Shown here: positions 1-3,010 of the stretch, in pieces
How positions within the stretch are numbered: the first letter of the stretch is position 1
Layout of the letters: each line of letters opens with the position of its first letter
Origin: Spirochaetia bacterium
GTDB lineage: Bacteria; Spirochaetota; Spirochaetia; SZUA-6; Bin103
DNA length: 64,000 nucleotides
NCBI GenBank assembly: GCA_965262935.1
Contig: OZ253572.1
Span: forward strand, 6,462,066 to 6,526,065
Direction of reading: 5' to 3'
Made by a program: the position numbers and the translations under genes
Notes under the pieces: generated by a model
The model's database searches: none
The model's input: only the letters and a program-made list of their open reading frames with translations
What the model was told of the DNA's origin: nothing

Positions 1-908
1 CTGCGGGGATTGAATGTCGCCCCGGAGCCAGTTCCGCCAGTGGCATCGACCCCGCTGGAGCGTCTGCTGGAGGAGTTTACCGGCTTTCTGCTGCGACCAG
101 CTACCAGTGGATGGCTCGGGCATTTCTGTCGGTTCGGGGGCAACAGGCCCTCGATTTGGACCGTCTTGGAGCCGACGACGTGTACGCTTTCCTGCTCACT
201 GAAGCCAACCAACGCAGTGCCGGCTCGCTCAACAACATCGTGACGGCGCTACGGGCGTTGCTTCGTTTTCTGCACCTGCGCGGCTACACCGCGCAGTCGC
301 TGGCGGAGGCGGTGCCGCGCGCGGCCACCCGCTGGAGCGGGCCACCGCAGCCGCTGTTGGATGGCGACGACGTGACGCGCCTGTTGGCAAGTTGTGATCG
401 CCGGACCAACGCGGGGCGGCGTGATTACGCGATGCTGACAGTATTGGCGCGGTTGGGACTGCGCGCCGCGGAGGTCGCCGCGCTCAACGTCGATGATGTC
501 CACTGGCGAGTCGGGGAAATCATCGTATGCAGCAAGGGCGGCCAGCGTGACCGGCTGCCGCTACCCGACGACGTGGGCCAAGCGCTCGCCGCCTACTGTC
601 GGCGTGGCCGCCGTCGCGGTGAGGACCGCCATCTGTTCCTGCAGGTGCGTGCGCCGTACCGAGGGATGGCGCCGAGTGCCGTCTCGGAAGTGGTGGCGCG
701 GGCATGTCGGCGTGCCGGACTGCCACCAGTCGGCGCGCACCGACTGCGGCACGCCGCTGCCACCGCGCTACGGCGCGCCGGGGTGCCCTTGGCCGAAATC
801 AATCAACTGCTGCGTCACCGCTATCTGGCGACCACCGCACGGTACGCGCACGAAGACCTCGATGCACTCGCCGAGGTGGCTTGTCCGTGGCCGGGAGGTG
901 CAGCGTGA
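1..908 (+). CDS. tyrosine recombinase/integrase, 5'-partial (frame 3 is open to the window start). First member of a recombinase-in-trio (RIT)-like array.
   Basis: Catalytic boxes are present: LGLRAAE (Arg), SKGGQRDR (Lys), HRLRHAAAT (His-x-x-Arg/His), LATTARYAH (Tyr). A core-binding domain lies upstream. There is no in-frame stop back to nt 3. The stop overlaps the next gene start (GTGA). Confidence 0.75.
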   Translation, partial: AGIECRPGASSASGIDPAGASAGGVYRLSAATSYQWMARAFLSVRGQQALDLDRLGADDVYAFLLTEANQRSAGSLNNIVTALRALLRFLHLRGYTAQSLAEAVPRAATRWSGPPQPLLDGDDVTRLLASCDRRTNAGRRDYAMLTVLARLGLRAAEVAALNVDDVHWRVGEIIVCSKGGQRDRLPLPDDVGQALAAYCRRGRRRGEDRHLFLQVRAPYRGMAPSAVSEVVARACRRAGLPPVGAHRLRHAAATALRRAGVPLAEINQLLRHRYLATTARYAHEDLDALAEVACPWPGGAA

Positions 909-1561
909 GTCGGCTTCATGCGCTCCTGGACGACTATCTGGCACTGCGCCTCGCGCTGGGGTTCAAGCTCTGCCAAGAGCGGCAGTTACTGCCTGGATTC
1001 GTCGACTTCGTCGAGCAGGCCGGGGCGGAGTCGGTAACGGTCGAATTGGCTTTGGCTTGGGCAAAGAAGCCGACCGGAGTGAACCCGTTTCGATGGAAGC
1101 GGCGGCTCTCGATGGTGCGCGGATTCGCTCGCTATGCGCACGCGTTCCACCCAGCCACCGAGGTGCCGCCCGTTGGGCTGCTGGCTTATCGAGCCACAAG
1201 GCCCACGCCGTTTCTGTTGTCCGAGCAGGACATTACCGTACTGCTGGCGGCAGCCGAAGCGCTTCGACCGCCCCTGTTGGCAGTCACCTGCCGCACGCTG
1301 TTTGGGTTGCTGGCGGTCACCGGACTTCGCGTCGGTGAGGCTATCGATCTCGACCGTGAAGACGTTGACCTTGTTCGCCGCCTGCTGACCGTGCGCCAGA
1401 CCAAGTTCAACAAGTCTCGGCTCCTGCCGTTGCATCCGACTACCAACGACGCTCTCGCCACCTACACGCAGCAGCGAGATCGGTTCTCTCCAAACGTTCT
1501 TCACCCAGCGCTTGCTTGGCGAACGCGAGGCCAGTCCGCACACGGTAGCTGCCTACCGTGA
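905..1561 (+). pseudogene. tyrosine recombinase, C-terminally truncated. It keeps the core-binding domain and the Arg/Lys boxes but lacks the H-x-x-R, H/W and Tyr boxes.
   Basis: GTG start overlaps the upstream stop. It shows GLRVGE (Arg) and TKFNKSR (Lys), then ends about 90 aa early, where the next recombinase N-terminus begins in another frame. Confidence 0.5.
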
Positions 1562-2456
1562 CACCTTCCGGCTCCTGCTCGCGTTCACCACTGCCCGGCT
1601 CGGCAAGACGCCGTCGCAATTGCTTCTTACCGATCTCGACGTGACCGTGATCGACGCATTCCTCAACCATCTCGAACATGACCGTGGCAATAGCGCGCGC
1701 ACCAGGAACGCCCGTCTGGTCGCGATTCATTCTCTGTTCCGCTTCGCCGAGCTGCGCCATCCTGATCACGCCTACATGATCCAGCGAGTGCTCGCGATCC
1801 CGGCGAAGCGACAGCAGCGCACCGAAGTGAGCTTTCTGACCCCTATCGAGGTCGATGCGTTGCTCGCAGCCCCCGATCGTACTACGCGCATCGGTCGGCG
1901 CGACCATGCGTTGCTCGTCCTGGCTGTGCAGACCGGCCTGCGTGTTTCCGAACTGGTCGGCCTACGCCGCTGTGACGCCCATCTCGACCGTGGCGCTCAC
2001 GTACGCTGCCACGGCAAAGGACGCAAAGATCGCGTCACGCCGCTTGCCGTCCAGACGGTAGCGGTGCTCCAGGTGTGGCTCCGCGAACTCGCTGGCGGCC
2101 CGCACACCGCGCTGTTTCCCAGCCAGCTCGGCCGTCCCCTCAGCCGTGACGCGGTCGAGCGTCTGCTGGCCAAGCACACCCGCGCTGCCGTGCTCGCGTG
2201 CCCGTCCCTGGCCACCAAGAGGGTCTCACCACATGTACTGCGCCACACTGCGGCGATGCGGCTCCTGGAGGCGGGCGTTGATACTTCCGTGATCGCACTG
2301 TGGCTCGGTCACGAGAGTGTTCAGACAACCCAGGTCTATCTCCATGCCCACCTCGCACTCAAGGAACGCGCTCTGGCCAAAACTGCTCCGGCCCACACCA
2401 CTCCCGGTCGCTATCGTCCACCCGACGCACTGCTCGCCTTCCTGGAAGCCCTGTAA
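1512..2456 (+). CDS. tyrosine recombinase (XerC/D-like), complete. Third gene of the trio.
   Basis: N-terminal AAYRDTFRLLLAF core-binding motif. Catalytic boxes GLRVSE (Arg), HGKGRKDR (Lys), HVLRHTAA, GHESVQTTQVYLH (Tyr). TTG start per ORF track. Homology-like sequence continues a few codons upstream, but no start codon is found there. Confidence 0.8.
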   Translation: MLGEREASPHTVAAYRDTFRLLLAFTTARLGKTPSQLLLTDLDVTVIDAFLNHLEHDRGNSARTRNARLVAIHSLFRFAELRHPDHAYMIQRVLAIPAKRQQRTEVSFLTPIEVDALLAAPDRTTRIGRRDHALLVLAVQTGLRVSELVGLRRCDAHLDRGAHVRCHGKGRKDRVTPLAVQTVAVLQVWLRELAGGPHTALFPSQLGRPLSRDAVERLLAKHTRAAVLACPSLATKRVSPHVLRHTAAMRLLEAGVDTSVIALWLGHESVQTTQVYLHAHLALKERALAKTAPAHTTPGRYRPPDALLAFLEAL

Positions 2457-2743
2457 CTATGCCGACCCCTGCGGCGCGTTCACCGCCGTTGCACCTGCTG
2501 GAACACACCGAATTCCCGCCCGCCTCGATCACGCGGCATATTCGGTCGGTCGGCATAGGAACTGCACCTTCAGATCCAGCGTCTGCTATTGCCCGCCAAG
2601 TGAGAGTTCCTGGTTTTGTACAACCCCGCCAGGGGGCGTAGGATAGGTTCGCTCGGAAGCGGTTCTGGAGAACAGAGAAAGAGATAGGGGCCACCGCCCG
2701 TACTTTTCGCCAGGTACGCGGTGACCCCCACCAGAGAACTGGG

Positions 2744-3010
2744 TCAGATCACCGGCTGCCGGTAGCGTCTGCAGCCGCCGGCGGACACGCACGCGTCCCA
2801 TTCGGCGAACGTCACCTCGCGCACGCCCACCGCGAACGGCTCCCTGATGGTCACGCGCCGCCGTCTCGTCGCTGTCGCGGCCCTCCTGCCCCGCCGGGGA
2901 GCCGACGAAGGCTCCGACTCCGGCGCAGGCGTGTTGGCGGCATTCCCACAAGCAGCCAACGCAAGCCCAAGGGCGGCAGCCCCAGACCGTCGGTGATCCA
3001 GAACGAGTGG
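2744..3010 (-). pseudogene. remnant of a lipoprotein with an FGE-sulfatase (SUMF1) domain. Only the first ~35 aa of the domain remain, and no start codon precedes the signal peptide.
   Basis: Lipobox LALAACG, a Ser/Pro/Arg-rich linker, then [27 protein letters not shown]. This matches the FGE N-terminal consensus (...RVTLDAFWMDRHEVTNAQFAAFV...). It is followed at once by a stop, and no continuation is seen in any frame. Confidence 0.4.

Follow-up and report, generated by a model that had tools for sequence, protein, structure and literature searches.

A probable, recently inactivated copy of a recombinase-in-trio (RIT) element beside an apparently independent FGE-like gene relic

RIT (recombinase in trio) elements are mobile elements of about 3.4 kb that carry three tyrosine recombinases, RitA, RitB and RitC, between terminal inverted repeats (IRs) of about 100 bp. 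Van Houdt et al. 2012 (PMC3414803) first described them, in Cupriavidus metallidurans CH34; Ricker et al. 2013 (Plasmid 70:226) is a further reference. The Rit subgroups have been described as Xer-like 'simple' recombinases, RitA having two sequential core-binding domains and RitC an extra conserved C-terminal helix (PMC8138268). Truncated or rearranged RITs are known from pHG1 of C. eutrophus H16 and from plasmid 2 of Aromatoleum aromaticum EbN1, where missing or truncated RIT genes were read by the authors as a trace of recombination activity (PMC3414803). Several tyrosine recombinases also lie side by side in Tn554 (TnpA/TnpB/TnpC), the four-gene GInt islands (PMC5385486) and the gamma-mobile-trio (GmtY), although these differ from the present locus in gene number, sizes and end structure. 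As a concrete comparator for this analysis we used the trio on the Rhodococcus opacus B4 plasmid pROB02 (NC_012521.1 80493-83520).

The locus analysed here lies at the start of a stretch of 64,000 nt (the window), which has a G+C content of 69%. Positions 1-2559, together with about 470 nt further upstream, very probably represent a recently inactivated, non-autonomous RIT copy, beside what is probably an independent, older FGE relic. Like known RITs, the element has three co-directional recombinases in the order A-B-C with 4-bp overlaps, TATGCCG in its terminal IRs, intact relatives of about 3.4 kb, a palindrome by ritC in sister copies, many near-identical copies, and sites in islands or inside other transposable elements. 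Unlike them, the window copy has lost parts of all three genes and the ritC-side palindrome, its flanks derive from different sister insertions, and its host is an uncultured bacterium, represented by a 7.0-Mb contig. It shares with the RITs of pHG1 and EbN1 that one or more genes are missing or truncated, but sister copies about 99.8% identical to it allow its deletions to be mapped exactly. The features are as follows.

1..908, plus strand: ritA pseudogene (Phage_integrase E 1.5e-28), aligned to the intact 401-aa RitA of contigs L001 and L007.
94..95, plus strand: point in ritA at which 28 nt have been deleted; lost segment ACCAACGCGGATTGGCACCGGGAACCGT, ACCA microhomology, frameshift.
905..1561, plus strand: truncated ritB, with authentic codons 1-194 at 905-1486 and then a tail of 24 codons that is out of frame.
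1486..1487, plus strand: junction of a 367-nt deletion, with CT microhomology within an imperfect CTGTCC/CTCTCC repeat, from alignment to contig L002.
1488..2456, plus strand: ritC without codons 1-7, the start codon among them (Phage_integrase E 3.3e-36); first possible start TTG 1512 (codon 16).
2458..2559, no strand assigned: right terminal inverted repeat, intact, with its outer end at 2559 and three TATGCCG motifs.
2560..2586, minus strand: IS21-family transposase remnant of 27 nt (in inverted orientation, from the end of the N-terminal fragment of istA), a 100% match to the istA of contig L111.
2587..2742, no strand assigned: truncated interspersed repeat of about 204 nt, of which about 156 nt are left, 92-95% identical to copies in unrelated contexts on L004, L006 and L107.
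2744..2945, minus strand: FGE-sulfatase-like pseudogene relic of about 65 codons, with a stop at 2744-2746, a 2-nt deletion at 2863/2864 and the C-terminal three quarters missing.

Pfam Phage_integrase matches in three same-strand ORFs (1-908, 905-1561 and 1512-2456) bear out the preliminary description of three consecutive, overlapping tyrosine recombinase genes, and its view of the array as RIT-like and no longer intact also holds, all three genes being damaged relative to the intact sister copies. The alignment that it proposed against RitA, RitB and RitC gave position-specific orthology to the pROB02 trio: same-position identities are 45% (RitA), 49.5% (RitB) and 58.9% (RitC), as against about 30% or undetectable similarity for cross-position pairs. 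The ritA/ritB overlap is 4 bp (GTGA, 905-908), within the 4-8 bp typical of RITs; the ATGA overlap of ritB and ritC is present in sister copies and deleted in the window copy. Almost all of 79 genome loci, from many phyla, show the same A-B-C gene order. Beyond its catalytic Tyr, RitC has a 37-aa tail that is conserved at 67 of 80 loci and undamaged in the window copy. The three co-directional recombinases, the overlaps, the IRs and the RitC tail agree with published RIT descriptions (PMC3414803, PMC8138268), and the window proteins are likewise of the Xer-like simple type. Sister RitA proteins carry a 112-aa extension before a SAM-like domain; a likeness of this extension to the second core-binding domain can be seen by eye, but BLASTP gave no significant match (E 0.75). 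The R...H-x-x-R...Y catalytic set is found in all three recombinases of the intact sister copies and is no longer complete in all three of the window copy.

Other families of tyrosine recombinase were rejected on score: the matches to chromosomal XerC/XerD reached 120-166 bits against NCBIfam equivalog cut-offs of about 330, those to integron integrase and DNA invertase fell far under their cut-offs, and RitC scored 24 bits against the 340-bit NCBIfam cut-off for GmtY. An exact look-up of the 314-aa RitC ORF gave no match, and a scan for the IR core found none in 185,579 species genomes, so that either the source species or the window RIT is absent from these representatives.

Both ends of the element could be placed when its terminal inverted repeats were sought, as the preliminary description had suggested: the right one in the window, the left one in the near-identical twin contig L001. 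The right IR matches L001 8623-8735, upstream of ritA, in reverse complement (95.7% over 115 nt), and its TATGCCG motifs, at 2458-2464 (plus), 2534-2540 (minus) and 2551-2557 (minus), are three of the eight in the window; the motif also occurs in the IRs of pROB02 and of locus L075. Its left partner would lie about 370-470 nt upstream of the window, a position taken from the twin, which is 99.9% identical but has the 28 nt. Measured between the outer ends of its IRs, the element is 3,389 bp long in L007 and 3,022 bp long in L001, from which a length of about 2,994 bp follows for the copy in the window, the left arm of which is seen only in the twin; the usual definition of a RIT has an IR-bounded unit of about 3.5 kb. 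The outer boundary was derived from over 20 junctions, among which six different flanks occur. At the ritC end only, sister copies carry a perfect 30-nt palindrome, AACTGATATGCCGC-TA-GCGGCATATCAGTT (also given as ATATGCCGC-TA-GCGGCATAT), whose half-site is an internal IR motif. This palindrome is present in sisters L108, L110, L111 and L114 and is replaced by 27 nt of istA in the window, a secondary loss that is no argument against RIT membership.

Twelve intact copies on other contigs, with six kinds of flank, are 98.7-99.9% identical to the window copy and encode a RitA of 401 aa, a RitB of 310 aa and a RitC of 329 aa. Deletions aside, the window copy differs from its closest sisters at about 0.1-0.2% of positions and from the most divergent at up to 1.3%, and it has a single private substitution; the missing 28-nt and 367-nt segments are both present in all 12. 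The first recombinase had been described as cut by the window edge, and indeed the 5' 270 nt of ritA lie upstream of the window, but this is not the sole damage. After position 94, the loss of 28 nt that are present in L001, L002 and all 10 further copies shifts the gene from frame 1 (1-94) to frame 3 (95-908, TGA stop at 906-908); frame 1, if read on, meets a stop at 241-243. This deletion is known from a single assembly.

The 367-nt deletion, common to the window copy and L001, takes RitB residues 195-310 (the catalytic half), the ATGA overlap and ritC codons 1-7 including the start. RitB thus ends after residue 194 without the HGLRH and Tyr motifs of the intact protein, and only positions 3-86 of the 172 of the Phage_integrase profile are matched. 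The middle gene is therefore truncated, as had been claimed, but 'decapitated' was the wrong word, its tail being lost and its head kept. The decapitated gene is ritC, which had been called complete: its ATG and first 7 codons are gone. It keeps an intact catalytic domain and an intact conserved C-terminal tail, and an N-terminally shortened RitC might conceivably be made from TTG 1512. A look-up of the 218-aa RitB fragment led to the twin contig; the ORF matches protein P0001 exactly and the 316-aa P0002 at 98% identity over 90% of its length. This longer protein, the 310-aa RitB P0144 with P0149 in the same 90% cluster, and the missing 367 nt in 12 of 12 sister copies dispose of the idea of a naturally short recombinase family. 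The records of intact P0149, of truncated P0001 and of four other window proteins each name a contig of 7,006,115 nt; that this is one and the same contig is judged from the identical length and not from coordinates.

The two flanks of the window copy derive from different sister insertions, the left from a tniB-like ATPase gene, which in the twin L001 stands truncated to the left of the RIT, and the right from 27 nt of IS21 istA. The same istA flank is found in L007, L109, L111 and L116, and by sequence match the 27-nt remnant appears to have been carried over from a sister RIT::IS21 copy. There, a clean RIT insertion splits IstA (518 aa when intact) into fragments of 347 and 190 aa, the former ORF scoring 240 bits on NCBIfam transpos_IS21. 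RIT insertions occur at the same codon (CAGTT) in two diverged IS21 istA genes, and at a locus common to L002 and L007 the RIT points in opposite directions in the two contigs. Sister RITs interrupt IS21 istA, a gene resembling tniB and a fragment of a sulfatase gene. The mixed flanks of the window copy would have arisen by recombination between RIT copies, an exchange that can be seen in sister contigs as inversion in place and as products with swapped flanks; it could be plain homologous recombination.

On the other side of the istA remnant stands the fragment of interspersed repeat. An Rfam scan of 2300-3700 returned only sub-threshold chance matches, and the repeat of about 204 nt, the copies of which are 91-95% identical, is thus not a described RNA family. 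Of two scans of JGI metagenomes for the repeat, the first found none and the second returned 17 stretches with one true copy (L094). In the intact sister L116, the right RIT junction is identical and the repeat continues past the breakpoint seen in the window to the end of the contig; the junction of repeat and FGE relic at 2742/2743 is therefore a separate breakpoint.

The relic itself lies on the minus strand 287 nt from ritC, in agreement with the interval of about 290 bp given previously, and its FGE-like character stands in part. FGE proteins match 2747-2842 by tblastn at E 1.7e-10 to 2e-10, and a further HSP covers 2865-2909 in a different frame, possibly extending to about 2942, and the database matches of the relic carry PF03781. 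However, the best PF03781 score, with the two frames joined, is 17.3 bits against a cut-off of 23.3 (HMM positions 16-59 of 255), and the 212-aa ORF has no Pfam match at E <= 0.01. The gene had been said to stop about 35 aa into its catalytic domain: the stop at 2744-2746 is confirmed, but the similarity covers about 65 codons over two frames, which are parted by the 2-nt deletion at 2863/2864 when the 97% identical relative L003 is taken as reference. A lipobox-like LALAAC, which makes the lipoprotein signal of the preliminary description no more than putative, lies in a frame that joins the FGE part only through this deletion; in L003, which is without it, the FGE homology is in the other frame, which shares its nucleotides with that of the lipobox. 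Like the FGE family (PF03781, SUMF1/FGE), the aligned codons fit the N-terminal quarter of the domain (GSPAGxEGR). Unlike members of the family, this sequence is frameshifted, stop-terminated and under the family threshold, and the C-terminal catalytic cysteines of the domain are missing from it: it is a relic, not a gene. As stated previously, the window holds no FGE continuation in any frame, nor do the 9 kb upstream in L001, and a search for a full-length ortholog returned short fragments only, half of the query being interspersed repeat. With regard to the two Cys-type sulfatases named in the preliminary description, the one at 57286 stands (Pfam Sulfatase, CAPSR at residue 52), but that at 63123 is a C-terminal part, the N-terminus, which would give the Cys or Ser type, lying beyond the window.

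How far do these observations permit other explanations of the damaged trio? That errors of assembly or polishing produced one of the deletions, or both, in a truly intact element is very improbable. The sequences do come from metagenome-derived long-read assemblies, a multi-copy RIT can confuse assemblers, and the 28-nt deletion is not in the twin; yet two different assemblies share the 367-nt deletion (a 756-kb, 43x contig besides that of 7.0 Mb), both junctions show clean microhomology, unlike homopolymer errors, and truncated RITs are common elsewhere (PMC3414803). It is also very unlikely that the copy is a still-working reduced module, with a short RitA from ATG 111, a RitC from TTG 1512 and RitB dispensable. 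Complete catalytic domains are kept in the ritA and ritC ORFs, and ritA frame 3 is open over 3-908. Three full genes in the order A-B-C are nonetheless present in 12 of 12 sisters and nearly all distant RITs, a conservation that points to selection for the trio. A RitA begun at ATG 111 would have no N-terminal extension of 112 aa and would lack the initial third of its core-binding domain, there is no Shine-Dalgarno-like sequence before ATG 111 or TTG 1512, and translational coupling through the ATGA overlap is lost.

The same junctions bear on the proposal that the RIT abutted and destroyed the FGE gene, either by insertion or by a deletion running from its end, which we consider very unlikely. 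The relic ends only 184 nt past the RIT end, its continuation is absent from the window, and sister RITs interrupt other genes, as described above. Against this, the 27-nt istA remnant and the 156-nt repeat fragment separate the RIT end at 2559 from the relic, and the uninterrupted repeat after the same RIT-repeat junction in L116 places the FGE junction inside the repeat rather than at the RIT. To the left of the RIT in L001, where the remainder of the gene would be sought, there is the tniB-like ATPase gene. Furthermore, in L003 the same relic is cut no more than 27 nt from the point seen in the window and runs into other debris, namely pieces of a group II intron and part of an HTH/antitoxin gene, and at that junction L003 matches neither the RIT of the window nor its IRs nor the interspersed repeat. 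From these comparisons, the FGE relic appears to have been truncated at a breakpoint with the interspersed repeat and not by the RIT, as an independent, older fragment at the edge of a mobile-DNA graveyard.

The window copy, read as an inactivated RIT, would no longer move by itself, and an intact RIT elsewhere on the 7.0-Mb chromosome could use it as a substrate, via the IRs or simple homology. A wider reading, which we regard as doubtful, is that the RIT family is currently active, that its insertion is site-specific and that the junction series fits a hairpin or telomere-resolvase-like intermediate. To our knowledge, the mechanism of RIT transposition has never been demonstrated experimentally. 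A hint at such an intermediate comes from RIT DNA that was protected from exonuclease but showed no circle junctions (PMC5737581). If that reading were true, the dead window copy would still be invertible, or recombinable with other copies, in trans.

The locus is a RIT of known type amid mobile-DNA fragments and is essentially ordinary; in itself it has very little significance. The window copy follows an ordinary decay path of a known mobile element, by two small microhomology deletions, and the analysis corrects the idea of an element knocking out a sulfatase-maturation gene. For mobile-element specialists, the family is of modest value, with more than 12 near-identical RITs, exact ends, a TATGCCG end motif, a clean istA insertion and reciprocal flank swaps.

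The left edge of the window holds three tyrosine recombinase genes, followed by a series of short segments:

1-908, ritA ORF, same strand as the other two; Pfam tyrosine-recombinase catalytic domain, E 1.5e-28
905-1561, truncated ritB ORF, same strand; the same domain, E 3.9e-11, profile positions 3-86 of 172 only
1512-2456, ritC ORF, same strand; the same domain, E 3.3e-36
2458-2559, inverted repeat (IR)
2560-2586, istA remnant
2587-2742, truncated interspersed repeat
2744-2746, minus strand, end of an FGE-like ORF

Judged by its sequence, the trio is a recombinase-in-trio (RIT) element with defective genes. 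Published RITs are units of ~3.5 kb in which the ORFs overlap by 4-8 bp and ritA and ritC are flanked by an inverted repeat and a palindrome; they occur in multiple identical copies, often in islands or inside transposons, and truncated RITs are already on record (PMC3414803). Two core-binding domains are present in RitA, and RitC carries an additional conserved helix at its C-terminus (PMC8138268). In the window, ritA and ritB overlap by GTGA (905-908), and alignment with the trio of Rhodococcus opacus B4 plasmid pROB02 gave position-matched identities of 45%, 49.5% and 59% for RitA, RitB and RitC, whereas cross-position pairs reached ~30% identity or were undetectable. Of 79 loci from Actinomycetota, Acidobacteriota, Proteobacteria and other phyla, almost all share the A-B-C gene order, and the RitC tail (HADLxIKERALAR...GRYRPxDxLLAFLExL), kept in 67 of 80 loci, is unbroken here. 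NCBIfam holds no RIT model; its matches to Xer, integron-integrase, invertase and GmtY families fell far below cut-offs, and we rejected these assignments.

The truncated middle protein has an exact database entry (P0001), also found on a 756-kb ENA metagenome contig (L001), a twin that matches the window at 99.9% identity and extends it by 9 kb upstream. A 316-aa relative (P0002), 98% identical to it, pointed to contig L002, and members of the P0002 cluster led to eleven further copies (L007-L009, L107-L116). Full sister copies encode RitA of 401 aa, RitB of 310 aa and RitC of 329 aa with 4-bp overlaps. Standalone contigs of ~3.4 kb whose 93-nt IRs are 99% identical were also found, as usually happens when a multi-copy element is assembled.

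RIT terminal inverted repeats lie where the preliminary description suggested looking, 3' of ritC and upstream of the window: the 113 nt 3' of the ritC stop (2458-2570) are 95.7% identical to the reverse complement of L001 8623-8735, just upstream of ritA. We set the element ends from more than 20 sister-copy junctions with six unrelated kinds of flank. All flanks part company directly outside CCTATGCCGACC, which therefore places the right end at window 2559 and the left end at L001 8634. The distance between IR ends is 3,389 bp in intact copies, 3,022 bp in L001 and ~2,994 bp in the window copy. Each IR contains three TATGCCG motifs (three of the eight occurrences in the 64 kb fall within 2458-2557), and the motif is also present in the IRs of distant RITs on pROB02 and a Cryobacterium contig.

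That the trio cannot be intact was borne out by alignment, which maps two deletions. The first removes 28 nt of ritA between 94 and 95 (ACCAACGCGGATTGGCACCGGGAACCGT, with ACCA at each edge), a segment present in L001 and every other copy; it shifts ritA from frame 1 over 1-94 to frame 3 over 95-908, with the frame 1 stop at 241-243. The second removes 367 nt at 1486/1487 in both the window and L001, its junction lying at a CT microhomology within an imperfect CTGTCC/CTCTCC repeat. The lost segment encodes RitB residues 195-310 (HGLRH box and Tyr region), the ATGA overlap and ritC codons 1-7 (MSTLAPT), and ritB therefore closes with a 24-codon out-of-frame tail. A naturally short RitB family is ruled out, since 12/12 other copies carry the 367 nt. 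The earliest start left to ritC is TTG 1512 (codon 16), before which no Shine-Dalgarno-like sequence was seen. The reading of a RIT with a truncated middle gene stands, but the third gene, described as complete, has lost its head, and the first is additionally frameshifted. Apart from the two deletions, this copy matches the others at 98.7-99.9% identity, with a sole private substitution at position 128, and the damage is therefore very recent.

It had also been proposed that the element, or a linked deletion, destroyed the adjacent FGE gene, a link that the sequence does not support. The istA remnant and the interspersed repeat intervene, and L116, an intact RIT copy, has the same right junction (27 nt plus repeat) with the repeat continuing beyond the window's FGE switch point to the contig end; this places a separate breakpoint within the repeat, at 2742/2743. 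Full copies of this ~204-nt repeat occur in unrelated contexts at 91-95% identity (L004/L005, with L004 7958-8160; L006 8051-8253; L107 ~9656-9860), and spurious translations of it populate at least eight database protein clusters. No Rfam family matches it, and one strand folds somewhat better than shuffled sequences (z = -2.7 vs -0.8); a MITE-like element and a small RNA gene are both conceivable.

Homology of the relic to FGE-family proteins holds, in two frames (2747-2842, E ~2e-10; second segment, 2865-2909), but the match to PF03781 (13-17 bits, HMM positions 16-59 of 255) stays below the 23.3-bit cut-off. Contig L003, from the same sample as L001, is 96-97% identical to the window over 2770-4300, and relative to it a 2-nt deletion at 2863/2864 splits the window's FGE reading frame. 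The lipobox-like motif shares its nucleotides with the frame that carries FGE homology in L003, which leaves the lipoprotein reading putative. The L003 relic is truncated as well: homology stops at 2770, where it joins an HTH/antitoxin-like fragment and group II intron pieces, and its junction has no match to the window's RIT or interspersed repeat. Neither the window nor the 9 kb of L001 to the left of the RIT contains any further FGE-like sequence, and the database protein search turned up no full-length close ortholog. The relic is an old pseudogene fragment bordering a variable, mobile-DNA-rich stretch, and it was not cut by the RIT. Across the leftmost 7 kb the G+C content is 60-67%, vs 68.7% for the whole window.

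In the wider neighbourhood, the Cys-type sulfatase at 57286 is confirmed:

5902-9774, large Calx-beta and arylsulfotransferase-domain protein, just right of the mobile-DNA stretch
10474-12063, second arylsulfotransferase-domain protein, just right of the same stretch
54658, alpha-L-fucosidase
57286, Cys-type sulfatase ORF; Pfam Sulfatase, CAPSR at residue 52
63123, sulfatase C-terminal part, N-terminus beyond the window

The Calx-beta/arylsulfotransferase gene contains 520-nt internal repeats, ~84% identical, at 7629-8482. At 3677-4400 lies a two-ORF module (164 aa and 73 aa) without a Pfam match, whose junction (4108-4300) is 93.8% identical to L004 1347-1539 and whose 164-aa protein belongs to a 90% cluster of 85 members spread over many contigs; this is probably a further small module, mobile or of addiction type. 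On the other side, ~2.2-2.5 kb upstream of the window start, L001 carries a perfect 109-nt tandem duplication (6635-6858) in a graveyard of mobile elements comprising a lone integrase SAM-like ORF, a 347-aa integrase, a Mu-transposase C-terminal fragment and a truncated AAA_22 ATPase.

Finally, the sister copies reveal how the flanks have been shuffled. The same RIT interrupts an IS21-family istA cleanly in L111, leaving a 347-aa N fragment (240 bits on NCBIfam transpos_IS21) and a 190-aa C fragment, which align contiguously to a 518-aa IstA; CAGTT is present at either side of the insertion, and a sister RIT has entered another, diverged copy of IS21 at this codon (CAGTT). A perfect palindrome of 27-30 nt, AACTGATATGCCGC-TA-GCGGCATATCAGTT, whose half-site is identical to a motif within the RIT inverted repeat, lies on the ritC side only. 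Insertion site and palindrome are seen at L111 1375-1385 and 4805-4845 and at the L108, L110 and L114 junctions. In L002, L007 and L109 the istA N fragment stands at both RIT sides in inverted orientation, and in L110 the palindrome and istA C fragment stand at both; these sets are what recombination between inverted RIT::IS21 copies should yield as reciprocal products. Furthermore, L002 7528-13263 and L007 3411-9246, from two metagenome contigs, represent one chromosomal locus in which the RIT, between 1.17-kb inverted copies of the istA N-terminal fragment, is oppositely oriented.

The window copy is itself a mosaic that has undergone flank exchange. On its right, precisely 27 nt of the istA N fragment remain, inverted (2560-2586, 100% match) and without the palindrome. 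On its left, L001 shows a truncated tniB-like AAA_22 ATPase gene with the Mu-transposase fragment before it; the same ATPase fragment lies on the opposite RIT side in L107. The agent of exchange may have been the Rit recombinases or ordinary homologous recombination. Elsewhere, a 148-aa sulfatase gene fragment reads straight into the left IR of the same RIT (L115 918-1364). Among distant RITs (the pair of loci L052 460-6895 and L089 1785-5967), an IS21 (IstA and IstB) lies between ritA and ritB in a Vicinamibacterales MAG, and on pROB02 the RIT interrupts an istB-like ATPase gene; RITs and elements of IS21 type have hit each other repeatedly. The junction series from active sister copies could make the RIT mechanism testable.
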